Shown here: in pieces, positions 7,107 to 47,383 of the stretch
Layout: the number at the start of each line of letters is the position of its first letter
Numbering within the stretch: the first letter of the stretch is position 1
Source: an uncultured Clostridia bacterium
GTDB taxonomy: Bacteria > Bacillota > Clostridia > TANB77 > CAG-465
NCBI GenBank assembly: GCA_947625855.1
Contig: CANQPW010000003.1
Span: 33 to 64,032 of the forward strand
Reading direction: 5' to 3'
DNA: 64,000 nt
Notes under the pieces: model-generated
Databases searched by the model: none
What the model was told of the DNA's origin: nothing
Seen by the model: the letters and a program-made list of their open reading frames with translations, nothing else
Program-made: the position numbers and the translations under genes

Positions 7107-8270
7107 TTAAAAATGCAAAACAAAATCATATAATGCTTTATTCTTTTTTGATTCTTTTAAACTTTTTTCTGCCTTTTCTTTTACAAGCCTTACAAACTCT
7201 GAAAAATCATATAATTTATATCTGTTAATTCCCTCATTAAGTGCTACTTCTTCAAATATTGCTATCACCATATCATCTAAATTATATGCCTCTTTAACTT
7301 TAGTTTTACTTACTAACTCTTTTAGAGTTTTATCATAAAACACTTTATCTATATTTTCTCCTATATTATAGCTTACATTTACATCTTTAGTTAGTTTTAA
7401 TTTATAATCAAAACTAATATTTTTTATTCTACTATTTATCTTTTCATTAGATACACTTTTAAAGTAATATCTATATCCCTTTAATTTTTTAGTAAACCTT
7501 AATCCATCATAATATCCAAGTTTTAATAACTCATTTAAGTTTTTAGTATCAAAATTTAAAATACTAGGTAAAGTATCTTGTGGTGCTATCATATATATTT
7601 TGGCATTATTTCTTTTAATTATATCATCATAATTTCTAATTCTACTTAACTTTTTATACACTCTTACTGTAATAATATCAGTATATCCTTCCCCCTCAAG
7701 CATTTCTATTGGGCAAGGATCCCAAGCACCACCATCTATAAACTGCTTGTCATCAATTCTTGCTCTTTGAAATACTGGTAAATTTGATGTTGCAATTAAA
7801 TAATCAATTAATTTTCCTTTTGGAATATCCTCAATAAATAATTCTTGTGGTTTCATATCAGTAATACACATTGTAACAAGACCAAATCTAACATCTGACT
7901 TTCTTAGTTTTTTCTCATCAATAGTGTCTTCCATTATCTGACGCATTTTAGTTGTTGCAAGTCCTTTTTCTTTTATTATATTTCCTAACTTAGATGACAT
8001 ATATTTTACAGTATCCATATCTAAGTTTTTTTTCATTGCCTTTTCTAATTTTTCATTTTCTAAATCAAATAAATCAGAAAATGAAAGTGTTTTCCAAAGT
8101 TTATATAATTTTTTAAATTCTCCTTGTGCAAGATAGGCTGAGTTTATTGCACCAATAGATGTTCCAACCATTACATCAAATTCATATTCTGCTTCAAAAA
8201 GTGCTTTTACAACTCCAACTTGATATGCACCTTTTGCACCTCCACCTTCAAGTACTAAACCATATTTCAT
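7107..8270 (-). CDS. Patatin-like phospholipase
   Basis: Oxyanion GGGAKG, nucleophile GTSIG (GxSxG) and catalytic-dyad Asp in FIDGGAWD. The C-terminal ~150 aa have no motif I recognise. Confidence 0.8.
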   Translation of the reverse strand: MKYGLVLEGGGAKGAYQVGVVKALFEAEYEFDVMVGTSIGAINSAYLAQGEFKKLYKLWKTLSFSDLFDLENEKLEKAMKKNLDMDTVKYMSSKLGNIIKEKGLATTKMRQIMEDTIDEKKLRKSDVRFGLVTMCITDMKPQELFIEDIPKGKLIDYLIATSNLPVFQRARIDDKQFIDGGAWDPCPIEMLEGEGYTDIITVRVYKKLSRIRNYDDIIKRNNAKIYMIAPQDTLPSILNFDTKNLNELLKLGYYDGLRFTKKLKGYRYYFKSVSNEKINSRIKNISFDYKLKLTKDVNVSYNIGENIDKVFYDKTLKELVSKTKVKEAYNLDDMVIAIFEEVALNEGINRYKLYDFSEFVRLVKEKAEKSLKESKKNKALYDFVLHF

Positions 8271-20629: not shown

Positions 20630-22768
20630 TCACCTAACTCTTTTTACATCAAATACACTATCAATTTTTTTAAGATTTTTTATGGTAGTTTGAAGTTTTT
20701 CTATATCTTGTATAGATATATGCACATCTGTTACATTTTCTTTATCTGGCATAACTTTAGTATTAATTTCTGTAATATCTACTTTTAAATCTTTTAATAC
20801 CTTTAATATATCTGATAAAATTCCATCCCTATCATTTGCTTTTATTCTTACATGTGTTATGAAATTTGCTTTAGTTTGTTTTTTCCATTTTACATTTATT
20901 TTTCTTGTATTTATATCTAAGTTTTTCAAATTATTGCAATCTTTTCTGTGTATAGAAACACCATTTGAAAAAGTAATATATCCTACTATTTCATCTCCTG
21001 GTATTGGAGAACAACATTTTGCAAATTTTATTAAACAGTTATTTATATTTTCTACCTCAACTAAATCTTCTGTTTTTACTTTTTTACTTTTTTCTAAGCC
21101 TTTTAATTCCTTTACTTCACCTTTTTCTTTTATGCTTTCATCATATGCCTCTAACAATCTATTTATTACTTTTAAAGGTGATACACTACCAAATCCAATA
21201 TTTTCATAGCAGTCATCAAGTGAATTAAAGTTAGATTTTTTTAACATTATTTTTATATATTCATCTTTAGTTAAAATATCTTTTGAAACTCTTTGTTTTT
21301 TTAGTTGTTTTTCAAATATTTCTTTTCCTTTTAAGATATTTACTTCTCTTCCTTCTTTTTTTAGAAAAGCTGTAATTTTATTTTTTGCACTTGTAGTCTT
21401 TACATATTTTAACCAATCTCTATTTGGACCTTTTGCATTACTACTTGTTACAATTTCAACTACATCCGTATTTTCAAGTTTAGTGTTTAATGGTACCATT
21501 CTAGAGTTAATTTTTGCCCCAATCATTTTTTCTGCAACTTTTTGATGAATTGAATATGCAAAATCAATAGGTGTAGAACCTTTTGGTAATGCTTTTATAT
21601 CACCTTTTGGTGTAAATACAAAAACTTCTTCTCCAAATAATTCTACTTTCATATTCTCCAAATTTTCTGTATTATCTATTAATTCTTGCTGTATTTCTAA
21701 TGCTTTTCTAAGCCAAATTATCTTTTTATCTGCTTCACTTATTTTTTTAGATTTTTCCTTATATGAGAAATGAGCTGCAATACCTCTTTCTGCAACATTA
21801 TGCATATCCCAAGTCCTTATCTGGATTTCAAATGGTCTTCCACCTTCTCCAAATACAGTAGTATGTAAAGATTGATACATATTAGTTTTAGGAACTGCAA
21901 TATAGTCTTTAAATCTTCCAGGCATAGGTTTATACATATCATGAACTATTCCAAGTACACTATAACAATCTTTTATTGAACTTACAATAATTCTTATTGC
22001 TAATAAATCAAACAAATCATCTGCTCTACATTTTTTATCTTTCATTTTTTTGTATATGCTATAAAAATGTTTTGGTCTTCCATAAATTTCTGCTTCTATT
22101 CCTTGCTCTTTTAATACTTTTTGAACCTCATTTATTCTATCTTTTATATATTCTTCACGTTCTTGCTTTTTTTCATCTATTTGTTCTTTTACCATTTCAT
22201 ATTCTGATGGCATAAGTATTCTAAAAGAAATATCTTCAAGCTCAGATTTAACCTTTGACATACCAAGTCTGTGTGCAATTGGAGCATATATTTTTAAACA
22301 GTCTTTTGCGAGTGCAGTTTTTTTACTTTCATCTTTTATTTTTACTATATTTCTCATATTAAATAATACATCTTCAAGTTTAATAATTACTGTCCTAATA
22401 TCTTTTGCAATTGCCATAAACATATTTCTTAGTATTTCATTATCTATTTCATCTTTCTTTTTATAATTTAAATATGATAATTTATCTATTGTTTCAATTA
22501 TTTCTAATATTTCATCTCCAAATTTTTCTTTTATTTCTTCCTTATTATAACTTTTACTTTTTAAAGCTTTATATAACAAAGATGCATAAATTGATGTATC
22601 ATCAATTCTTAATAATGCTACTTCTCTTGTAACTCCTATAACATATTCTAAAGTATCTAAATCATATATATCATTACAATATTTTGCTACCTGCTCTAAT
22701 TTTTCTTTTTCATATTTTATTTTTTCTTGATTTAAAATTTTTGATACTTCATCTAATATTTCATTCAT
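20630..22768 (-). CDS. relA: Long RelA/SpoT-homologue (p)ppGpp synthetase with a degenerate hydrolase domain
   Basis: Start reset to MNEILDE (ATG 22766-22768) behind GGAGGAAG. Synthetase motifs are intact (YGRPKHFYSIYKKM, DLLAIRIIV, FKDYIAVPKTNMYQSLHTTV, EIQIRT). TGS and ACT-like C-terminus present. The N-terminal HD region has no His before residue 166. Confidence 0.85.
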   Translation of the reverse strand: MNEILDEVSKILNQEKIKYEKEKLEQVAKYCNDIYDLDTLEYVIGVTREVALLRIDDTSIYASLLYKALKSKSYNKEEIKEKFGDEILEIIETIDKLSYLNYKKKDEIDNEILRNMFMAIAKDIRTVIIKLEDVLFNMRNIVKIKDESKKTALAKDCLKIYAPIAHRLGMSKVKSELEDISFRILMPSEYEMVKEQIDEKKQEREEYIKDRINEVQKVLKEQGIEAEIYGRPKHFYSIYKKMKDKKCRADDLFDLLAIRIIVSSIKDCYSVLGIVHDMYKPMPGRFKDYIAVPKTNMYQSLHTTVFGEGGRPFEIQIRTWDMHNVAERGIAAHFSYKEKSKKISEADKKIIWLRKALEIQQELIDNTENLENMKVELFGEEVFVFTPKGDIKALPKGSTPIDFAYSIHQKVAEKMIGAKINSRMVPLNTKLENTDVVEIVTSSNAKGPNRDWLKYVKTTSAKNKITAFLKKEGREVNILKGKEIFEKQLKKQRVSKDILTKDEYIKIMLKKSNFNSLDDCYENIGFGSVSPLKVINRLLEAYDESIKEKGEVKELKGLEKSKKVKTEDLVEVENINNCLIKFAKCCSPIPGDEIVGYITFSNGVSIHRKDCNNLKNLDINTRKINVKWKKQTKANFITHVRIKANDRDGILSDILKVLKDLKVDITEINTKVMPDKENVTDVHISIQDIEKLQTTIKNLKKIDSVFDVKRVR

Positions 22769-22864
22769 AAAACTTCCTCCAACATAATGATATTTTACTA
22801 CAAATAATAAAAAAAATAAAGAAAAAAAGGACAAGTATTATAAACTCATCCTTTTTTTATTTAA

Positions 22865-27775: not shown

Positions 27776-27916
27776 AAAATCCCCTTAAAAATTATATAAA
27801 CGAATATAACTAATACTTAAATTTTTAATAGTATTAGCCTCTTATATATTCTTTTCATCTTACATTATTAACTTTACCATGTATTATACCCCTTAAAAAA
27901 AATACATTTCAATTTT

Positions 27917-27945
27917 ATATTACCACTACTTAAGAAAAAAATCAA
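27917..27945 (-). promoter_or_regulatory. Promoter of VWA paralog 1
   Basis: Minus strand TTGATT, 17 nt, TAATAT with TGg extended -10. The block is conserved upstream of paralog 2. A second candidate lies just downstream (TTGAAA, 18 nt, TATAAT at 27883-27912), so the true TSS is ambiguous. Confidence 0.5.
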
Positions 27946-28008: not shown

Positions 28009-31000
28009 TTACTGTTTTTCTGTCTTCATCTTTAATTTTATTACAGCCAAAATAACAACTCCAACAAACATTAAAGAAAGTCCTATTTTATAAAATAGAG
28101 ATGTTCCAATAGCACCAGATGATGGAAAACTAAATATTGATGTATTTGGTAGTAATAATTCTACTCCATTTTTAACTACAAATGCTGGTGGTAAATTTTC
28201 TCCAAGTGCTGTTATATCTGGTACATTTTTTCCTGCTTCAAATACTACCCTCCACTGTCCTTGTGGTTTTACTCTACCTAGTGTTGCTTTATCTTCTACA
28301 AGTCTATATTCTTCTCCTAATATTATTCCTTCAAATTTTACCTGTCCATCTATGTTATCTTCTCCACTTAATTTTTCTCCTACTTTTTCAAAGCATTCAT
28401 TAATATTATTTGAATCTAATAACATATTATGGTCTTCATCTGTATGATGTGTAGGATCTTTACATACTAGTCTATATAATGTAAACTTTGCTCCATTTAA
28501 TGGATTTTCTTGATTTTCACTTTCTACTTTCTTAAATTCAAAATCTACTAAACTTGATGCATTTATATATTCTACTAATTCATCATCATCTAACTTTCCA
28601 CTCTCATTTGATGGTACTGTTGTAAAGTTATTTTTTCCTTCTTCTACTTCTTCTATTTTATACTCTAATCCTTTTGGTAAATTCTCTATTGTTATATTTT
28701 GTCCATGTTTTAATTTTACACTTCCAGTAGAACTTCCATCTTCATTTTGTGTAAATTCTATTTTTCCATCCAGTGCAGGAGTCACATCATCTACAAAGCT
28801 TGACCCTTTATAATCATAACTATCATATAACACTATATCACTTTGTGGTATAAATGTTATTTTAAAAGTCCAGTCTCTTTTCTTATCCTCACTTGTTCCA
28901 ACAACTGTTTTTCTTAAATCTAATTTTACTAATTCTTGAGTAAATTTATTTACATAATTTGCCTCATCTGCTAAACCTGCTTCTGTAATACCTGTAATTG
29001 TTCTTTCGTTTACTTCAAAATCATCATCTTTTCTTCCTGTTACACTTACAAATTCAAATGCAGGATTTTGTGGCTCATGTTCAGTAACTACATATGATGT
29101 TCCAGCATTTAATCCAGATATTAAAATTCCCTCTCCATCTTTTAATGTAAATGTTGTTGTTACTATATTTGTACTCTTATCAACATTAAATTCAAGGTCT
29201 TTTATTTTCATATCAACAGTAATTTTATATAACGGTACTGTATTACTTAAATCGCTATATACACGTATTGTTTCAGATGTTTCCTTATCAGGGCCAGTAT
29301 ATGTAGTAATTGTTCCGTCTGAATTTATGGTTCTTGATTCTAAATCGTTTCCAACCCAATACTTTGTTCTCTTTCCATCTAAATCAAGTATATATCCTTC
29401 ATTATCCGTCACAACATACATATCCTCTGCTGCAGGTATCCATTTTGTTCCGTCCCATATATATGTAAATACTATTGCTCTTTCATTAGCTACATCACCT
29501 ATTAATTTTAAATCATATGTAAACTCCTCATTTTTTGCTTTTAAGAAATGATTTTTATCAACATTTGATTCAACAGTTTTTGTTATGAACAGCCATGTTT
29601 CTTGAACCGCTAATGCACCATTATTACCAAGGTAAGTTATAATACTATAATTTCCTTCCATATCTGCTACACTACCATATACAAGTGCATAATATAGTGT
29701 TGCTGTATCTGTTTCATTTTTTAATTTTAAATGTGAGTAATTTGTTATATTTCCAACACGTTTTCCACCAATTTTTGTCGCAACTACTATACCTTCACCT
29801 GGTGCATCCCCTTCTATATTTTCTGCTTCGTTATAATAAGTTATATATTTTTCACCATTATTTCCGAAAAAATCAGATCCTTTACAAGATACTGCATATT
29901 TTACTTTTCTGCCAATTGTACCATCAGAATTTTGACTAGGAATAAAATAATCTATTGTAAAATAATATGTTTCATCATCTATTATTTCATCAATACTTTT
30001 TACCTCATCACTTAGCTCAATACTACCTCCTGTTTCAACTACTTCACCTTCTCCACCAGAGCTATTTTTATATATCTTTAAATTATTTTGAAATACATAA
30101 AATCTATTTTCTGATGATGGTGAAAATGTTACTGAAGGATTTCCAAAAGTATATCTTCTTCTACTATCAAAATTTTCTCCACTATAATAATTTGAATAAA
30201 AATATGCCCATTCTTCTCCATCTTTTTCTTTTATATTATTTGTAAAATATTCTCTAGAAAGTCTACTTAAATCTATTTTTCCTGTTTTGCTATTTATTAT
30301 TTCATCAGTTATTCCAACAGTATACACAACTCTAAGTGGTAAAGCATAATCAGTTTCTGCATTTGTATTGTAGTTTATGACATTTGAAAATTCATCTATA
30401 TCTATTGAGCTTAAAAGAATTGGAAGTACATTTGTTGGTACATTAATATGTAATGCTTCCTCATAAAAAGAATCTTCATCATGTTCTTCATCAGTATTAT
30501 AATCTCCACTATCTTCAATCCATATTCTTATATCACTTAGTTTATATGTGACATCACTACTATTACCATAACTTGGATTATTTCTTATCATAGTTCTTTC
30601 ACTTTGAGCTAAATTTAGACGGTAAAGTGTAAATACTATATTATCTAATGCTTGTTTAGAGCTCAAATATCCCTCTGGTAAAAAACCTTCTTGAGTTTTT
30701 GAACCTTCAACATACTCACGTGTTAGATAATATGTATCACCTGCGTCCCAACTTCCTTCATCTCCTAAGAAGTTTCCCTCACTGTCATACCAACCATTTC
30801 CATTACCTTTCATATCAAAATTTGCGTCATATACACCAGTTTTAACTACTGGATAATTATTACCAAATAATAATAGATTAGTAACATCTTTTATTTCCAT
30901 ATATTTTCCAATAGGGTCTGTATAAGTTAAAGCATCTTTAATTCCCATATCATTATATCCCTCTATTGGTTTAAATGCTTCTCCTTCAATTTCGTATAAG

Positions 31001-32979
31001 ATTTTTCCAAGTTCTTCACTTATATTACTAGACATTACATCATAAAATCCATTGTTATATACCATATTATTTTTAACATCTTCATTTGTTATTGTGACAT
31101 CAAAAGTATCATTATATGATGCCTCTTCACTAATTGGTAACATATGTACTTTAACCTGAGCCGAATTCGTATTTGCCTCAGCATCTTGTCCATTTTTCCA
31201 TTTTTCCCAAGACGATATAAGTCCTTGATATATTGTTGCTTTAGTTATACCAAAACCATTTTGTAGTTCTGGTCCAAATAGTTCTTCATTATCCCACCAA
31301 TTTGGTATATCACTAAATAAATTATTTCCTGGGTCAACAATTGGATAAAGCCTAAGTTTTCCCCATTGTGGAATATGCTCAGCATCAATACTCATTGTAT
31401 ATGTTTTAGGGGAAATCCTAGATTCTTGAGTTGCCCCATTTTCTGTCCATCCTTGTTCATAATGCTTATCTACTGCTGTTTTCATATATGATGCTGTCAT
31501 TAAACATTGTAAAACTGCCCCTGATGTACCAAAAGTATCATTATCATTACTATAAAAAGCACCTGCATAATTCCACGCTGGAATACCTGTTAAAGATCCA
31601 TTTTCTTCTTCCATACCAGGATTATAAAGAGAAGTTATAGCATGAGTATCATTTATACCTGGCAAATATACTTTATACCATTCATCACCAACATTATCAT
31701 TTAAACGATGTGAAAAATCACGTAAATCCATAGTCCAACCTAATTCTGGTTGAGTATGGTCTATTGCTGAGTTATCATTACGATAGCCATCATAATATTC
31801 ACTATATACACCATAAAATCTATCCCAATCATCCATTTCATTAAAAGCAAAATTTGCTCCACCATCTGTCATTATAATTGTAGCAGGAATACGCGCAACA
31901 GTAGTATTCATACCATTAGGAAGAATTGTTGAAAATGTTGTTTTACTTTCCTGTGCCAGTTGTGCATATGCTAAATATATACCACCTTGTGTATTTGTAA
32001 GATAACCAATATATTCATCTGCTTCAATTTCATTTTTTTCTTCATTTACACCTAAAGATAAATTTTCATCTGTTTGCACTTTATATCCAGGATATGCTTT
32101 TACCTTAGTATTTTTAACATTATTACTAATTATTTTTGTATAAATATTATTATCTGAAAATGTTGGATTATCATTATCATCCCTATATGCTTCTGCTTTT
32201 ACTGCAAAACAAGCATCTATATTTCGCGTCCAAAGTAGACCATATTCTCCTTCATATCTAAGATCTGCAAGATTATATAACGTCTCAAAACCAACAATAC
32301 TTATATATGGTTTATCATCAATTTTTTTATAATGTGCAAGTGGCATTAAAACAGTAGCACCAGCACCATATGCTACTATGGCAACTCTATTATTTTTATT
32401 TTGTTTCATCAATTCATCAATAGTTTTATTAATCGCATCTATTGATACTTTCAAACGAGAATTCTCAATTCTTTCTTTCATCGTACGTCTTTCACTTGGC
32501 GCATAATCTCCAGTAAATGGTGCATTGAAATCATCAATATTATATCTTATATCCTGTGCCATTGACGCAGACATATCTATATTAATTACTAAATCTATTG
32601 GACTAGGTGGATATTGTTTTAAAACTTGAGATGAACCTAATGCAGAAAATACATGTAAGAAATCTTCATTAAAATCAATATTAAACCTATTATCTAGCGT
32701 AACCTCATTACTTTGTGAAGTGCCATCATGAGCATAAACGGATTTATCCGACCATACATATCCGTTATATCTACCACCATTTAGTGGATTTTCTAATAAA
32801 TCTTTATAACTATCAACTGTATTAGTATCTGCAATACGTAAAACATTCTCATCTGCAAGATCTGCATGTAATGCTGAATTATCATCATTCATGTCACTAG
32901 CAATATAAATTATTGTAAATGCAATGAGTAATACTAAACATATTGAAAAAACACTTAATCTATTAATTCTTTTTTTCAT
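28009..32979 (-). CDS. Giant VWA/MIDAS surface adhesin, paralog 2
   Basis: 1656 aa with the same architecture as paralog 1. MIDAS DLVINIDMSASM. The C-terminal ~1000 aa are highly similar to paralog 1. C-terminus LPNTS...FPSSG plus TM plus KLKMKTEKQ. Confidence 0.8.
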   Translation of the reverse strand: MKKRINRLSVFSICLVLLIAFTIIYIASDMNDDNSALHADLADENVLRIADTNTVDSYKDLLENPLNGGRYNGYVWSDKSVYAHDGTSQSNEVTLDNRFNIDFNEDFLHVFSALGSSQVLKQYPPSPIDLVINIDMSASMAQDIRYNIDDFNAPFTGDYAPSERRTMKERIENSRLKVSIDAINKTIDELMKQNKNNRVAIVAYGAGATVLMPLAHYKKIDDKPYISIVGFETLYNLADLRYEGEYGLLWTRNIDACFAVKAEAYRDDNDNPTFSDNNIYTKIISNNVKNTKVKAYPGYKVQTDENLSLGVNEEKNEIEADEYIGYLTNTQGGIYLAYAQLAQESKTTFSTILPNGMNTTVARIPATIIMTDGGANFAFNEMDDWDRFYGVYSEYYDGYRNDNSAIDHTQPELGWTMDLRDFSHRLNDNVGDEWYKVYLPGINDTHAITSLYNPGMEEENGSLTGIPAWNYAGAFYSNDNDTFGTSGAVLQCLMTASYMKTAVDKHYEQGWTENGATQESRISPKTYTMSIDAEHIPQWGKLRLYPIVDPGNNLFSDIPNWWDNEELFGPELQNGFGITKATIYQGLISSWEKWKNGQDAEANTNSAQVKVHMLPISEEASYNDTFDVTITNEDVKNNMVYNNGFYDVMSSNISEELGKILYEIEGEAFKPIEGYNDMGIKDALTYTDPIGKYMEIKDVTNLLLFGNNYPVVKTGVYDANFDMKGNGNGWYDSEGNFLGDEGSWDAGDTYYLTREYVEGSKTQEGFLPEGYLSSKQALDNIVFTLYRLNLAQSERTMIRNNPSYGNSSDVTYKLSDIRIWIEDSGDYNTDEEHDEDSFYEEALHINVPTNVLPILLSSIDIDEFSNVINYNTNAETDYALPLRVVYTVGITDEIINSKTGKIDLSRLSREYFTNNIKEKDGEEWAYFYSNYYSGENFDSRRRYTFGNPSVTFSPSSENRFYVFQNNLKIYKNSSGGEGEVVETGGSIELSDEVKSIDEIIDDETYYFTIDYFIPSQNSDGTIGRKVKYAVSCKGSDFFGNNGEKYITYYNEAENIEGDAPGEGIVVATKIGGKRVGNITNYSHLKLKNETDTATLYYALVYGSVADMEGNYSIITYLGNNGALAVQETWLFITKTVESNVDKNHFLKAKNEEFTYDLKLIGDVANERAIVFTYIWDGTKWIPAAEDMYVVTDNEGYILDLDGKRTKYWVGNDLESRTINSDGTITTYTGPDKETSETIRVYSDLSNTVPLYKITVDMKIKDLEFNVDKSTNIVTTTFTLKDGEGILISGLNAGTSYVVTEHEPQNPAFEFVSVTGRKDDDFEVNERTITGITEAGLADEANYVNKFTQELVKLDLRKTVVGTSEDKKRDWTFKITFIPQSDIVLYDSYDYKGSSFVDDVTPALDGKIEFTQNEDGSSTGSVKLKHGQNITIENLPKGLEYKIEEVEEGKNNFTTVPSNESGKLDDDELVEYINASSLVDFEFKKVESENQENPLNGAKFTLYRLVCKDPTHHTDEDHNMLLDSNNINECFEKVGEKLSGEDNIDGQVKFEGIILGEEYRLVEDKATLGRVKPQGQWRVVFEAGKNVPDITALGENLPPAFVVKNGVELLLPNTSIFSFPSSGAIGTSLFYKIGLSLMFVGVVILAVIKLKMKTEKQ

Positions 32980-33078
32980 ACTTTACCCCTTAAAAAACAA
33001 AAAATTTACTTAATTTACAATATCAACTTATAATTATATTGTTCATATTAATTATTATTATAAATTTATATGTATTTT

Positions 33079-33168
33079 TTAAGAGATTTTTTTGTTTAAA
33101 TAAATATCTGTGTGTGTGTGTGTGTGTGTGTGTAGTTTATTCACATTTTCGTGCAATATTGTTACCAT
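33079..33168 (-). CDS. Candidate 29-codon leader ORF containing the (CA)12 tract
   Basis: AAGGAGA (33178-33184), 9-nt spacer, ATG at 33168. Encodes MVTILHENVNKL(HT)4DIYLNKKIS, stop TAA at 33079-33081. Lies downstream of the predicted promoter. Too short for the ORF track; found by hand translation. Confidence 0.3.
   Translation of the reverse strand: MVTILHENVNKLHTHTHTHTDIYLNKKIS
33109..33132. repeat. (TG)12 / (CA)12 dinucleotide microsatellite
   Basis: Read directly: ctg(tg)11tag, giving 12 uninterrupted TG units. It is 130 nt upstream of the paralog 2 ATG. No comparable tract lies upstream of paralog 1. Confidence 0.97.
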
Positions 33169-33207
33169 AATATTCTATCTCCTTTTTAAACGTACTATTA
33201 TAATTTT

Positions 33208-33236
33208 ATATTACCATTACTAAGAAAAAAAATCAA
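33208..33236 (-). promoter_or_regulatory. Promoter of VWA paralog 2
   Basis: Minus strand TTGATT, 17 nt, TAATAT with TGg extended -10. Sits within a ~40-nt block nearly identical to 27911-27950. Confidence 0.55.
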
Positions 33237-33331
33237 TAAATAATGTCTAAAAATATGATTATATTTGTATAATAATATATTAATCACTATAATAATAAAG
33301 CAATAAATAAAAAATAATATCTACAAATATA

Positions 33332-33355
33332 CCCCAGTTGAACCATCAACTGGGG
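33332..33355 (-). terminator. Terminator of the 3432-aa adhesin gene
   Basis: Perfect GC-containing hairpin CCCCAGTTGA-acca-TCAACTGGGG, 10 nt after the stop codon. The minus strand continues TATATTTGT. Confidence 0.7.
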
Positions 33356-33365
33356 TTATTAGTGA

Positions 33366-36300
33366 TTATTTAATTTTTTGCTTTTTAGATTTTTTTATTA
33401 AAACTATTGAGAAAATTACAAATAATATACTACAAATTGAAGTTAATATATATTTTGTTATATTAATATCTGATGTATCTACATTACCAACATTAACATA
33501 TATCTTTTCATTTTCTATATCTATGTATATATTTTCTGTTACTTTACCTGATATTTGTTTTTCATTAACCTTATTTATTTTTGTAACATAATCTTCTGCA
33601 TTTAATTCACTTATTTCATAATCAAAGTTTTCAGGTACTTTATATATTAATATTGTTTGATTATTTGATATTTTTATAACACCTTCACCAGATACTATTT
33701 TTCCTTCAGATACAACTTCATCTTTTTCATTTAGTATCTCATAATCTAAGTCTTCTGTGTAATTACCTAATTCATTAGTAATTTTTACACTTATTTCAAA
33801 TTGTTCATTTAAGTCCTCTTCTTTTGCTTTTAATTTTTTTGTTATATAAATATCAGGTTTATATTCATATATATAACTTACAATAACAGTATTTTCCTCT
33901 ATAATTCCACTTGCATTTTCTGGAACACTAACTAAATAATAATTTTCAAATTCTTTATATTCAGTTTCATATTCATCGCCTAATAATACATCTTCAATTA
34001 CAATATCATCTATAATTTTTGTACCATCAGTTTTCTCATATTTTACAATAATTCTTGCCTTTATTCTTTGAAATTCTACTTGCACATGTATATTTTCTTT
34101 TACAGATTTAAACTTATCTAATACATATGGTAATGATCTATCATCTGGTAATTCTTGTTCTACACCATTTACAAGTATTTTTGATATTTCAAAATATTGG
34201 TCTGGTACTATTTCAATATCTTCTACACTATCTTTTCCATATTCTACATATTCATATACATCATCATATTGTCCTGATATAGTACCATTTTCTGATAAAA
34301 CTTCTGTTGTAATTTCAAATTTTCTTAAACAAAATTCAACTGAAATTTCATAATCTTGATATATATTTTCAATTTTTGGCAATGTATAAGGTGAAATTCT
34401 ATCATCTGGTAAAGCTTGTTCTTCACCATTTATTGTAATTTTTGATATCTCATATCCTGTATCAGGTGTTATAACTACATCACTTGTTTGAGAATATCCT
34501 AAAACTACTCTTTCTACATATTCTTCATCTTGTGCAGTTATTGTACCGCCTTCACCATTTACTTTTGTTGTAATTTTATATGTTATTATACTATTTTTTA
34601 CAGTTACATCATTTTCATTTTTGGTTACTTCAGAATCATATATATCTATATCTTGTTCTTCAACGCTATAATCTATTTTACTACCATTAGCATTTTTAAA
34701 CAAATTATCAATTGTTTTCTTGTAATCTTCATTTTTTAATAATTCAACATTTTCCATAAAGATATTTCCATCTAAATATACATTTACATATATTGTATCT
34801 GGTCTATATCCTTCAAAACCTTCATCAACAAATTCTTTTGTAATATTTAGGGATATTTTTTCAACTTCATGTGAATTTGTTACATTAAATGTTTTTGCAT
34901 CACTATCATATATAATATCTGATGTATAACCATTTGGTACTTGTTCTTCTAAAGTATAATTTATTTCATTTCCAGCCTCATATTTATCTAAATCAGATAT
35001 TGTTATACTGTTACTATCTAGTATAATATTATCATTTACTACTTTATCACCATTTTTCAAAGTAAATTTTACAGTTTTTGGTCTTATTCCATCTCTATTA
35101 TCATCATCTTGCCATATTTTGTTTATTATTACATATGTTTTTTCAATTTCATGTTTATTTTTTAATGTAAATGTATTAGTTGCATCATCAAAGTCTTTAC
35201 TCTCAAGTGTATAATCTGTCAATTCATTTTCTAATACATCATATATAATAGCCTCTCCACCATTTTCATATACATATACTTCATCAAATGATGCACTAAA
35301 CTCATTTTCTGCATCTAATGTTTTCTTTTGTATTTCTCTACCATTTGATGTTAATGTTACTTCAACACTTTCTGGTCTTTTTCCATCCTGATTGTTATTA
35401 TCATTCCATTCTTTCTTTACAGAAATTACTTTCTTTTGAGGTGTATATGTATTTGTTGCCTTAAATGTTTTTGTATCACTGTTATACTCAATTTTAGATG
35501 TATATTTTTCTGATAATTCTACTTCTTCAACTATATAATTTATCTCAACACCATCTGAATTTTTATCTAAATCTGTTATAGTTATTGCCCAACCATTTTC
35601 CTCATTTAATATAACATTGTCCTTTACAACTTCACCGTCTCTTTTTATTACAAAATATGCATTTTCTGGTCTTATTCCATCTCTGTCATCTTCATCTTGC
35701 CATGTTTTTGTAATTATTATTTCTGCCTTTTCAATTTCATGTTTATTTTTTAGTGTAAATGTATTTGTTTCATTATCAAAATCTTTACTTTCAAGTGTAT
35801 AATATGATATTTCATTTTCTGATACATCATAGGAAATAGGCTCTCCACCATTTTCATATACATATACTTCATCAAATGATGCAGTAAAGTTATTTTCTTT
35901 ATTTAAAGTTATTTTTTGTCCTTCTGCATTATTTGCAAGTAAAGTTACTTCAATACTTTCTGGTCTTCTTCTGTCTTGATCTTCATTATCAATCCATTCT
36001 TTTCTTACAGAAATTACCTTTTTCTTAGGCTCATATGTATTTGTTACATTAAATGTTTTTGTATTACTATCATATTTAATATCTGATGTATATTCATCTG
36101 GTGTATCTTCTTCCAAAGTATAATTTATTTCATTTCCAGCCTCATATTTATCTAAATAATATATTGTTGTACTATTATTACTTGAAGAATCTAATATAAT
36201 GTTATCTTCTACTACTTTTTCTCCATTTTTTAATGTGAATTTTATAGTTTCTGGTCTTATACCATCTCTGTCATTTTCATCATCCCAAACTTTTGATATA

Positions 36301-43780: not shown

Positions 43781-45466
43781 TTATACAATTTTTTTAAAAT
43801 CTTGTATTACGATTTGAATAGTCTTAGGTGTATTAAATGTATTTAGCTCAATATTTCCTATAACATCTATTTTATTTCCAATTGTTATTTCATCACGTCT
43901 TTCCCCTTGAGAAAACGCAATTCCCTCAATTAAACTCTTTTCATCTTGAAGTGTAAGTTTTAAATGTTTATCCTCTTTTATAGTTCTAATAGAAGCTACC
44001 TTAAGTCCTTTATATATAAACAAAGGAACAGGATTTGATTGTCCATATGGTTTCATACTAACTATGTCTTTTATAATCTGAGAGTTTAAATCTTTTTTTG
44101 TAATTTGCATATCTATATCTATTATCTGCTCATTTGCATTTTTATTCATATTTTTTGATACTTCTTCAAATAAATCTACAAACTTTGAAATATTTTCTTC
44201 AAGAATACTTAGTCCAGCTGCAAGTTCATGACCGCCAAACTGAATTAATGTATCCTTACATTCTGTAAGTGCATCATATAGTGAAAAACCTGCTTGACAT
44301 CTTCCAGAACCTCTAATTACATCTTGTTCTTTTGTAAGTAATATAACAGGCTTGTAATATATGTTTACAAGTCTTGATGCAACAATCCCTATAACTCCAT
44401 TATGCCAACTAGGATTATATAGTACAATACTATTTCTATTTTCCATATTATTTTTCTTTATCATATCAATTGCTTCATCAAATATATATTTTTCAACTGA
44501 TTGACGTTCTATATTAAGTTCATCTAATTTTTTAGCTATATTACGCGCTTTTTCAACATCTTCTTCAAGTAACAAAGTAACAGCAACTCTTGCATTTCCC
44601 ATTCTACCACAAGCATTTATTCTAGGTGCCATTCCAAAAGATACCATTATACTGTCTATACTTTTAAAATTTACAATATCAAGTAATGCTTTAAGTCCTA
44701 CATTTTTAGTATTTTCCATCTGTTTTAAGCCATATTTAGAAATAATCCTATTTTCATCAACAAGAGGTACTATATCAGAAATTGTACCAACTGCAACTAT
44801 ATCAAGATACTTTAAATAACTACTATCATCAAGACCATATTTTTTACTTAATGCTTCCAAACATTTAAAAGCAACTCCTACTCCAGCATGCATTTTAAAA
44901 GGAAATTTATCATCTTTTTGCTTAGGATTAATAATTGCTAGTGCATCAGGAAGAATCTCTGCACATTCATGATGGTCTGTTATGCACACATCAAGACCAA
45001 TACTTTTTGCATATTCCACTTCTTCTACTGCAGTTATTCCACAATCAACAGTAATAACTAAATTTACACCGTCCTTTTTTATATACTCCAATGCATTTTT
45101 ATTCATACCATAACCTTCTACTAATCTATCAGGTAAATAATAACTAACATTTGCACCAAGTTCAGTTAAGAATTTATACATTATTGTAATACTAGTTATA
45201 CCATCTACATCATAATCTCCATAAATACAAATTTTTTCTTTATTTGTTATAGCTTTATCAACTCTTTCTACAAACTTATCCATATCTTTCATCAAATATG
45301 GATCTTTTAAATTACTTAAATCTCCATTTAAAAAATTATCAATATTTTCATATTCTATATTTCTTGAAATGAGTAATTTTGCCATAATCTCTGATATATT
45401 AAAATCTTGCATTATTTTCTTTACATATTCACTATCATATTTTTTTACATTCCATATCTTTTGCAT
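43781..45466 (-). CDS. recJ: Single-stranded-DNA-specific exonuclease RecJ
   Basis: DHH-family motifs GDYDVDG, TVDCG, ITDHHE and GGH.LAAG. Start preferred at MQKIW (ATG 45464-45466) behind GGAGG. The ORF-track start at 45478 overlaps that RBS. Confidence 0.88.
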   Translation of the reverse strand: MQKIWNVKKYDSEYVKKIMQDFNISEIMAKLLISRNIEYENIDNFLNGDLSNLKDPYLMKDMDKFVERVDKAITNKEKICIYGDYDVDGITSITIMYKFLTELGANVSYYLPDRLVEGYGMNKNALEYIKKDGVNLVITVDCGITAVEEVEYAKSIGLDVCITDHHECAEILPDALAIINPKQKDDKFPFKMHAGVGVAFKCLEALSKKYGLDDSSYLKYLDIVAVGTISDIVPLVDENRIISKYGLKQMENTKNVGLKALLDIVNFKSIDSIMVSFGMAPRINACGRMGNARVAVTLLLEEDVEKARNIAKKLDELNIERQSVEKYIFDEAIDMIKKNNMENRNSIVLYNPSWHNGVIGIVASRLVNIYYKPVILLTKEQDVIRGSGRCQAGFSLYDALTECKDTLIQFGGHELAAGLSILEENISKFVDLFEEVSKNMNKNANEQIIDIDMQITKKDLNSQIIKDIVSMKPYGQSNPVPLFIYKGLKVASIRTIKEDKHLKLTLQDEKSLIEGIAFSQGERRDEITIGNKIDVIGNIELNTFNTPKTIQIVIQDFKKIV

Positions 45467-45576
45467 TTTTACCTCCATAATAATTTTAATCTAATATATA
45501 CATTTTACTACAAAAAGTATAAAAAATAAATATATATATAGAAAATGGTGATAGAATTAACTACCACCATTTAATT

Positions 45577-47131: not shown

Positions 47132-47383
47132 TTATAATTCTTCCATTATTCCTAATGCTGCAAGTCCTACATACATAACAATTATTACAACGATAGCAAT
47201 AGCATTAAGAACTATTCCTGCAACAGCCATACCTTTAGGTTGTTTTGCTTTTGACTTTAACACTGTATCTACTATTCCAAGTATTAAACCTACAACAGCT
47301 GGAACTGAAAAGAAAATATTACATGCAGGTATTAGACCTCCAATAAAAGATACAATACCTAATACTAATGAAGCAATTCCCAT
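47132..47383 (-). CDS. Small two-TM protein, DUF4190-like
   Basis: 83 aa; MGIASLVLGIVSF...GLILGIV...GMAVAGIVLNAIAIVV. Paralogous to 47458..47697. The overlapping plus-strand ORF is a shadow. Confidence 0.55.
   Translation of the reverse strand: MGIASLVLGIVSFIGGLIPACNIFFSVPAVVGLILGIVDTVLKSKAKQPKGMAVAGIVLNAIAIVVIIVMYVGLAALGIMEEL

Follow-up and report, generated by a model that had tools for sequence, protein, structure and literature searches.

The window analysed here is a stretch of 64,000 nucleotides from an uncultured Clostridia bacterium (contig CANQPW010000003.1, positions 33 to 64,032), and the element in question is a perfect (CA)12 microsatellite located 5' of the gene of a 1656-aa surface adhesin, inside a short leader open reading frame (ORF). 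In our estimate the chances are evenly balanced that (CA)12 is a slipped-strand contingency repeat in a translated leader ORF, forming a switch like that of the pil1 locus of Streptococcus gallolyticus, with a hairpin which masks the ribosome-binding site (RBS) of the adhesin gene. The wider claim, that the repeat makes the expression of the adhesin phase-variable by some route (this one, a direct action of the repeat, or a change in promoter geometry), is one we regard as likely. The elements of the leader and the gene that it precedes are the following.

33208 to 33236, minus strand: predicted sigma-70-type promoter, TTGATT (33236-33231), a 17-nt spacer with a TGn extended -10 motif, and TAATAT (33213-33208).
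33179 to 33185, minus strand: Shine-Dalgarno (SD) sequence of the leader ORF, AAGGAGA, 9 nt 5' of the ATG at 33168-33166 and about 17-23 nt from the putative mRNA 5' end.
33079 to 33168, minus strand: leader ORF (upstream ORF, uORF) in the state with n = 12 repeat units, 29 codons followed by TAA at 33081-33079.
33109 to 33132, minus strand: perfect (CA)12 microsatellite in the leader ORF, encoding (His-Thr)n; one unit shifts the frame by 2 nt.
33096 to 33098, minus strand: TAA stop for n = 10, 13 or 16, 4 codons past the repeat and 8 nt before the base of the hairpin (short peptide).
33023 to 33025, minus strand: TGA stop for n = 11, 14 or 17, in the hairpin, 31 nt before the adhesin SD and 43 nt before the adhesin ATG (long peptide).
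32985 to 33087, minus strand: predicted hairpin of the leader RNA (folding, -21.9 kcal/mol, z = -3.03).
33081 to 33086, minus strand: anti-SD, UCUCUU, predicted to pair with all six bases of the adhesin SD.
32986 to 32991, minus strand: SD of the adhesin gene, AAGGGG, 6 nt 5' of the ATG at 32979.
28009 to 32979, minus strand: gene of the 1656-aa surface adhesin (paralog 2), the candidate regulated gene (ORF list and domain search).

The repeat, the leader SD with its ATG, and the three stops are read directly from the DNA. In the sequenced state the leader peptide is MVTILHENVNKL(HT)4DIYLNKKIS; the leader SD-ATG stands 36 nt 5' of the repeat, whose 3' end is 129 nt 5' of the adhesin ATG. TRF calls the array as (TG)12.5 with 100% matches. 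It is the sole perfect dinucleotide array in the 64 kb, and runs of 10 TG/CA bases are found at no other site of the window. When the repeat is edited in silico, the leader ORF extends to 47 codons for n = 11 and to 49 codons for n = 14, both ending at the TGA at 33025-33023. The first-pass annotation of the window had described an AAGGAGA followed after 9 nt by the ATG at 33168 and an ORF down to 33079, which the minus strand confirms; it had also proposed that n = 11 or 14 opens a frame of about 47 codons which ends about 30 nt before the adhesin RBS, and that n = 13 leads to a stop 4 codons further on, and these statements agree with the edited sequences and with the distances listed above.

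The window contains 27 strong-SD + ATG sites on its two strands, and such pairs are almost always real gene starts. The leader mini-ORFs of the 1656-aa adhesin and of its paralog (see below) are the only intergenic sites of this kind noted without a long ORF; the other short SD-ATG matches were placed by eye against the ORF list, the one at 47324 being left unplaced. The leader SD is predicted to be accessible, with a P(unpaired) of 0.87. On the plus strand, the ORFs that cover the repeat encode 43 aa and 37 aa and start with TTG or GTG. The stop of the long frame is a TGA, which is a true stop in this genome because TGA ends genes and the long ORFs are free of in-frame TGA (the gene stops of the window are TAA 29 times, TAG 6 times and TGA twice); genetic code 4, where TGA is not a stop, is ruled out by this stop-codon usage and by the intact long ORFs. 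The repeat was also considered as an intragenic frameshift tract of the adhesin itself and rejected, since it lies outside the coding sequence and every frame meets a stop before the adhesin ATG.

The predicted hairpin consists of a 15-bp basal stem of about -13 kcal/mol, in which 33087-33073 (AUCUCUUAAAAAAUA) pairs with 32999-32985 (UGUUUUUUAAGGGGU), and of a weak A-U inner hairpin between the two arms (-8.4 kcal/mol). The antisense strand folds more weakly (-15.5 kcal/mol, z = -2.0). The UCUCUU which faces the adhesin SD covers the two final sense codons of the leader ORF at n = 12 and the first base of its stop codon. The adhesin SD is predicted to be buried, with a P(unpaired) of 0.01 at every repeat length from 0 to 18, and it is the least accessible among the 15 strong-SD genes of the window. 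The hairpin was considered as an intrinsic terminator and this was rejected: two scans found no terminator-like site between 33330 and 32960, and the U-run lies inside the 3' arm and not after it. A hairpin which pairs the SD and is not a terminator would therefore place the control on the initiation of translation, not on the termination of transcription.

The first-pass annotation had proposed a translational switch set by the length of the repeat, with the folding of the leader in each repeat state as one of its checks. The anatomy and the idea that the reading frame sets the stop hold, with indirect support from the comparative data presented below and from the predicted SD-masking hairpin, but length alone has no effect on the fold: the predicted structure and the accessibility of the SD are identical for n = 9-18. 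An action of repeat length through RNA folding is thus rejected and, because length alone leaves the predicted fold unchanged, any effect of the repeat has to come from the reading frame and from the position of the ribosome. In a footprint model which ignores steric effects, blocking the nucleotides covered by a ribosome at the n = 12 stop raises the P(unpaired) of the adhesin SD from 0.01 to 0.71, whereas a footprint at the n = 13 or 10 stop gives values of 0.01-0.16.

In the proposed mechanism, transcription would start near 33201 from the TTGATT-17-TAATAT promoter, ribosomes would load at the AAGGAGA/ATG (33168) and translate across the repeat, and a change by one unit would shift the frame; translation of the leader, instability of the repeat and an effect on the adhesin are steps that we infer. 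With n = 1 mod 3, translation would stop at 33098-33096, before the hairpin, the adhesin SD would stay paired with UCUCUU, and expression would be low or off. With n = 0 mod 3, which includes the sequenced n = 12, termination would occur exactly on the anti-SD in the 5' arm, the SD would be freed and expression would be on. With n = 2 mod 3, the ribosome would pass the 5' arm and enter the interior of the hairpin, and expression would be on or intermediate. The even chances given to this switch take into account the promoter and SD-ATG kept in both paralogs, the tracts found in the adhesin family, three homologous leaders with the pil1 layout, the strand-specific hairpin that is predicted to bury the SD, the footprint result, the contrast with paralog 1, and a precedent tested with mutants.

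That precedent is the pilus loci pil1 and pil3 of S. gallolyticus, where the leader-peptide ORF has an RBS and contains 22 (or 13) GCAGA repeats and a stem-loop terminator comes after it (Danne et al. 2014, PLoS Pathog 10:e1003860, PMC3894217). When the repeat number changes out of frame, the peptide becomes longer, the terminator is covered by the ribosome and transcription of the pilus genes goes ahead; the switch was confirmed with ATG, triple-stop and terminator-deletion mutants (PMC3894217). The first-pass annotation knew of no described example for sortase-type adhesins, and pil1/pil3 is one. The likeness to the window extends over the whole leader: a short leader ORF, whose ATG is preceded by a recognisable RBS, comes after a promoter (predicted in the window), the repeat unit is not a multiple of 3 and lies wholly inside the leader ORF, and a stem-loop (predicted in the window) separates the leader from the adhesin or pilus gene. 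In both, one frame stops before the stem-loop and the others stop in it or after it; in the window, the n = 13 frame ends 8 nt before it, the n = 12 frame in its 5' arm and the n = 11 frame in its interior. In both, also, the sequence of the peptide is irrelevant (in the window, as proposed) and the target is a Gram-positive cell-wall adhesin (in the window, a putative one). On the other hand, the pil1 repeat is a pentanucleotide of 22 units (110 nt) and that of the window a dinucleotide of 12 units (24 nt), the pil1 stem-loop is a terminator while the hairpin of the window has no U-tract after its stem and pairs with the adhesin SD, and no sortase or pilin genes are adjacent to the adhesin of the window. 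The pil1 switch was shown experimentally; the element of the window is a candidate read from the sequence, which would work like a pil1-type switch and would differ from it in that its hairpin is not a terminator. The literature that we searched describes a leader-peptide repeat switch in no organism besides S. gallolyticus, and no SD-masking version was found in it.

The masking of the SD recalls the translational attenuation of ermC and cat genes, where a segment of the leader ORF pairs with the SD of the regulated gene and keeps it sequestered, until a ribosome located on that segment frees it. The SD pairs with a leader-ORF segment in both cases, and ribosome occupancy, in the window as a proposal, frees it. 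The difference lies in what positions the ribosome: in erm/cat, drug-induced stalling, which is a physiological signal; in the window, a heritable and reversible frameshift in the repeat, that is, a stochastic genetic signal.

The second adhesin gene of the locus provides an internal comparison. Its features are the following.

27860 to 27945, minus strand: leader of paralog 1, with a promoter block (27945-27917), the SD AAGGGG (27894-27889) and a mini-ORF (27880-27860).
27775 to 22865, minus strand: gene of the 1636-aa paralogous adhesin (paralog 1), from the ORF list.

The paralog 1 mini-ORF reads AAGGGG, 8 nt, then ATG GTA AAG TTA ATA ATG TAA; it is the 6-codon ORF that the first-pass annotation had placed there. 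The same annotation considered the leader peptide as not conserved and any role of it as acting in cis, and the two paralog peptides are indeed alike in Met-Val only; because nothing is conserved beyond these two residues, a role of the leader peptide would be in cis. The paralog 1 leader has no repeat and no significant predicted hairpin (z = -1.2), and its adhesin SD is open (P(unpaired) 0.55).

The predicted promoter is nearly identical upstream of the two genes, and two compensating 1-nt indels hold its spacer at 17 nt. Indels that cancel each other in this way are the pattern expected of a working promoter. TTGATT-17-TAATAT matches 8 of the 12 consensus positions and is for this reason absent from the list of the promoter scan. 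The transcription start site (TSS) is probably near 33201, about 16 nt 5' of the leader SD; because promoter-like matches occur at chance density in this A/T-rich region (47 found in the scan vs 45 expected), this position is to be read as a prediction.

The head of the adhesin, which is N-terminal and VWA-like and carries a DMSAS (DxSxS) motif, has homologs at 78 loci (L004-L081) of a genome collection, with 30-54% identity and a locus GC content of 27% to 65%; the patterns used in this genome scan were built from an alignment of 4 sequences. A protein search with the N-terminal 500 aa gave 7 matches, all at no more than 54% identity, whose leaders are unrelated and higher in GC. Tracts of at least 8 G or C are strongly concentrated in front of these genes: there are 21 within 600 nt 5' of the homologous adhesin genes (41.8 kb), while the other 585 kb contain 3 (Poisson p about 1e-34). 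When only non-coding lengths are counted, the comparison is 21 tracts per 13.1 kb upstream, these 21 being all the upstream tracts whether or not they were masked as non-coding, vs 1 in 12.6 kb elsewhere. The 21 tracts are spread over 20 of 73 loci. Some of the carriers are kin (L002 = L018; L020/L021/L023; L010/L041/L080), which still leaves well over ten independent lineages. The tract is a run of G on the sense strand in 20 cases out of 21 (binomial p = 2e-5), a bias with no obvious reason in the promoter-spacer cases described below. Because the tracts concentrate 5' of the homologous adhesin genes, a slippage-prone 5' tract appears to be a trait of this adhesin family, and the (CA)12 would be its version in a genome with 26% GC, the value measured for the window. 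Examples of these tracts are the G17 of L014 (1741-1757), the G14 of L035 (3530-3543) and the G12 of L021 (1372-1383).

This enrichment shows that the tract matters, not how. It would also be expected if the repeat tuned the adhesin independently of the leader frame, the (CA)n RNA or DNA acting directly, which we regard as rather improbable. Being C-rich and free of G, the tract could serve to load Rho or an RNA-binding protein; it could also be a small-RNA target, a spacer that changes the distance between the elements on its two sides, or a Z-DNA-prone sequence that affects transcription. It is predicted to be unstructured (P(unpaired) about 0.8), and in many homologs (L010, L014, L035, L041, L080) the tract comes with no SD-led uORF. 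Repeats in the 5' untranslated regions of Moraxella uspA1 and uspA2, and those upstream of Haemophilus influenzae hmw, tune expression with no uORF. In Helicobacter pylori tlpB, a variable G-repeat in the mRNA leader is the target of the small RNA (sRNA) RepG (PMC8295292). tlpB and the window have in common a variable simple repeat in the mRNA leader and an effect that is post-transcriptional (in the window, as proposed); the control of tlpB needs a trans-acting sRNA which pairs with the repeat and involves no uORF, while no partner sequence was found for the (CA)12, the window containing no TG-rich counterpart elsewhere. The leader has no match at threshold in Rfam, where only chance-level matches appear. 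The invariance of the predicted fold and SD accessibility from n = 9 to 18 speaks against a direct action too, and a dinucleotide unit placed 36 nt downstream of an SD-ATG is what a device that reads the frame needs.

Among the relatives, at least two other designs of the 5' region can be recognised. In the first one, the tract is part of a promoter: in L004, G8 lies within the spacer of TTGACA-17-TATAAT, in L012 these perfect hexamers enclose 19 nt that include G9, and L050 is similar. In the second one, a good promoter is followed by an SD-ATG uORF which runs through poly-G and by an intrinsic terminator 36-65 nt past the tract. This arrangement is seen in L002/L018 (AAGGAGG-10-ATG, G8), in L020/L021/L023 (GGTGA-4-ATG with G10, G12 and G10, respectively) and in L022 (AGGAGG-9-ATG, G9). 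The terminator lies 34-61 nt past the stop of one frame in L002/L018 and L020/L021/L023, whose two remaining frames end inside it or 23-76 nt beyond it; of the three frames of L022, two stop ahead of the terminator (by 20 nt and by 3 nt) and the third stops 33 nt after it. The sequences of the three leader peptides are unrelated, and the assemblies have caught different states, since the G10 of L020 corresponds to the short peptide and the G12 of L021 to the long one. Judging from this layout, these leaders look like members of the pil1 class with poly-G as the repeat.

The promoter-spacer homologs bring in another explanation, namely promoter-level phase variation, in which the promoter would lie at or downstream of the repeat and the length of the repeat would alter its geometry. 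Variable homopolymers in promoter spacers are classic in Neisseria porA and opc and in H. influenzae hif. These systems and the homologs L004, L012 and L050 share with the window a slippage-prone tract 5' of a surface-protein gene; the tract of the window differs from theirs by its place inside an SD-led ORF, 3' of the conserved promoter, and by a length too great for a spacer. Most homologs have a -10-like hexamer right next to the tract, and GATATT follows the repeat in the window. Moreover, paralog 1 has a second and better promoter match (TTGAAA-18-TATAAT, 27912-27883, 11 of 12 positions), which would start transcription at the mini-ORF itself. On the contrary, paralog 2 has only a degraded counterpart of this second promoter, whose spacer measures 20 nt and whose -10 reads TAGAAT, and the best-conserved promoter block is located upstream of the leader ORF. 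The (CA)12 as a promoter spacer was rejected, as its 24 nt exceed any workable distance between -35 and -10 and no acceptable -35 hexamer flanks it; promoter-like matches are, as already said, at chance level. Promoter-level variation is therefore, in our view, very unlikely here.

Several observations on the homologous leaders stand apart from these designs. L010 (1834-1870), L041 (3740-3775), L080 (3870-3905) and L002 (1780-1815) share the motif CTCC..AAATTTnGTC-Gn-TA(T/C)TA(G/A)T, in which a sigma-70 -35 cannot be recognised; a promoter of another type, or some other conserved site, may be present there. In L032 (3831-3965), with G12 an upstream ORF ends by an ATGA overlap with a possible in-frame start of the adhesin (ATG AAG CGG ATG AAA...), and with G13 there is an apparent in-frame fusion; this may be a version of the switch based on translational coupling or on an N-terminal extension. 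Higher-GC homologs (L020, 3830-3850; L021; L023; L077; L043, 3965-3982; L048, 3930-3955) have the motif TTTCTTTCC(A/G)GGAGG(A/G)A just 5' of the adhesin start, and this motif contains a pyrimidine stretch complementary to its SD. L020, L021, L023 and L077 have in common a leader of about 150 nt with a long inverted repeat (CGCACAGTTT..AAACTGTGCG). In L023 (3420-3640), a small ORF for an HTH-like peptide (MVNTAKLKLQMKKLNITQADVAKCLGIAQPTANQ...) lies between the poly-G/terminator module and the adhesin; it is not present in L020 and L021.

Several points weigh against the translational switch proposed for the window. Of the three low-GC relatives nearest to the window in composition, two (L004 and L012) have poly-G in a promoter spacer and no SD-led uORF, so that membership of the family does not dictate a leader-ORF mechanism. 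The window leader has no significant sequence homology to any other leader; a homology to the leaders of L020/L021 and L002 had been considered on the basis of shared motifs (TTTATTGATTTTTTT, TTATGGTRA, and AATAAA before the tract), and it was rejected because the best local alignment scores 40 vs a maximum of 45 for shuffled queries. The frames which stay open past the repeat are not significant alone, as an estimated 9% or so of frames are open over 26 codons at this base composition, which makes them unremarkable. The coincidence of the n = 12 stop with the anti-SD could be due to chance, with a probability estimated at roughly 5-10%. A footprint at the n = 11 or 14 stop leaves the SD at a P(unpaired) of 0.01, the basal stem re-forming in the thermodynamic model, which ignores steric effects; to arrive at a stop inside the hairpin, a ribosome in this frame would have to open the 5' arm beforehand. 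Polymorphism of the repeat is a prediction: exact-protein look-ups with the adhesin and the RelA-like protein, a protein search, a scan of GTDB genomes and two metagenome scans revealed no second genome of this species (they were empty or gave relatives at no more than 54% identity), and a gapped DNA pattern across the repeat had no match in metagenome contigs. The remaining points concern the hairpin and paralog 1. The hairpin is mostly A-U in a genome with 26% GC, and 2 of 200 shuffled sequences fold as well. A buried SD is predicted for 3 of the 15 strong-SD genes of the window, 2 of the other 14 having a P(unpaired) that does not exceed 0.05. In paralog 1, the SD-ATG is present with 6 codons and no repeat, and the conserved element could be a ribosome-binding stabiliser of the mRNA 5' end and not a sensor of the frame.

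These last points, together with the lack of conservation of the leader peptide, are those that a neutral repeat would predict. According to this explanation, which we consider unlikely, the repeat is neutral or recently expanded, the SD-ATG mini-ORF is a constitutive 5' stabiliser or translation enhancer in both paralogs, and the hairpin is a by-product of the A/T-rich sequence. SD-like stabilisers close to the 5' end are well known in Bacillus mRNAs. However, no second perfect array like the CA repeat of 24 nt exists in 64 kb of DNA with 26% GC, and the type of region in which it lies is that of the long homopolymers found in 20 of 73 homologous loci; to our knowledge, perfect arrays of about 24 nt are rarely kept in bacteria unless they are selected.

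If the translational switch is retained, a more complete claim can be formulated, which we put forward tentatively and hold to be somewhat doubtful. The dinucleotide repeat would set three positions of ribosome arrest with respect to an SD-masking hairpin and would produce heritable off, on and intermediate levels of adhesin translation, with no terminator; more broadly, the family with the VWA-like head would have evolved or acquired at least three 5' designs (promoter spacer, leader peptide with terminator, leader peptide with SD mask). If this is true, the leader-peptide repeat switch is widespread and operates in uncultured gut Firmicutes, it works with homopolymers and dinucleotides besides pentanucleotides, and it can be wired to the initiation of translation besides termination. 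It would also follow that the locus carries two heads on one stalk, one adhesin being switched stochastically and the other being constitutive. For annotation, the combination of an SD-led mini-ORF running across a simple repeat and of a hairpin after it, both 5' of a surface-protein gene, would help to recognise adhesins subject to phase variation in metagenome-assembled genomes (MAGs), which are out of reach of experiments.

The gene which precedes the adhesin on the same strand ends close to the leader.

Ending at 33366, minus strand: gene of a 3432-aa Cna_B-repeat protein, with 19 Cna_B domains and MucBP.
33331 to 33356, minus strand: GC-rich intrinsic terminator of the 3432-aa Cna_B gene (terminator scans).

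Because this terminator closes the Cna_B gene, the adhesin forms its own transcription unit. The intergenic region between the Cna_B gene and the adhesin gene measures 386 nt, and the spacer between the adhesin and paralog 1 measures 233 nt.

The DMSAS in the head of the adhesin may be read, from its sequence, as the metal-binding (MIDAS) motif of a VWA domain. The stalks are made of Ig-like domains, DUF7601 and SpaA in both adhesins and DUF5979 in paralog 2 only. Both adhesins end with LPNTS, not LPXTG, then a hydrophobic segment and a Lys-rich tail; in the 1656-aa adhesin, about 20 residues separate LPNTS from the hydrophobic segment and the tail is KLKMKTEKQ. The 3432-aa protein likewise terminates in a hydrophobic segment followed by a Lys-rich tail, and lacks an LPXTG-like motif. 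No sortase was seen among the few window genes that were annotated. With a motif that is non-canonical, the label "sortase-type" is plausible but unproven for these adhesins. The C-terminal 1016 residues of the two paralogs are 80% identical, and the last 260 or so nearly 100%, while residues 1-218 are 52% identical and the rest of the heads gives no alignment. Near-identical stalks with diverged heads are consistent with gene conversion of the stalk or with the swapping of head cassettes.

In the searches made, the family with the VWA-like head was found only in gut MAGs named 'Lapin' or 'SRP314395_co1', from Clostridia and Bacilli and with 26-65% GC; a protein-pattern scan of JGI metagenome contigs gave no relatives of the adhesin. 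All 78 records listed have isolate names starting with 'Lapin' (most of them) or 'SRP314395_co1', and they are labelled Clostridia, Bacilli, Lachnospiraceae, Oscillospiraceae and other taxa. This suggests that the family is restricted to a host or habitat and spread across taxa. In L010 (376-1614) and L080 (2632-3747), genes of tyrosine recombinases (Pfam Phage_integrase and a SAM-like N-terminal domain) are located directly 5' of the adhesin and its poly-G, which hints that some members of the family are on integrative elements. L012 has a second G9 tract (7867-7875), non-coding and 3.9 kb 3' of the adhesin start, which may precede another gene of this kind. In L001 (592-2959), L002 (2073-9914) and L003 (10001-13149), which are ENA contigs of low coverage (about 3x), the adhesin is called as two consecutive ORFs (e.g., 535 aa + 2045 aa), which may reflect frameshifts of the assembly or real ones.

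In the window, the three very large surface-protein genes (3432, 1656 and 1636 aa) are arranged in tandem on the minus strand from 22865 to 43664. They are flanked by a RecJ-like gene (43781-45478) and by a RelA/SpoT-like gene (20630-22834), and the composition of the tandem is the same as that of its flanks.

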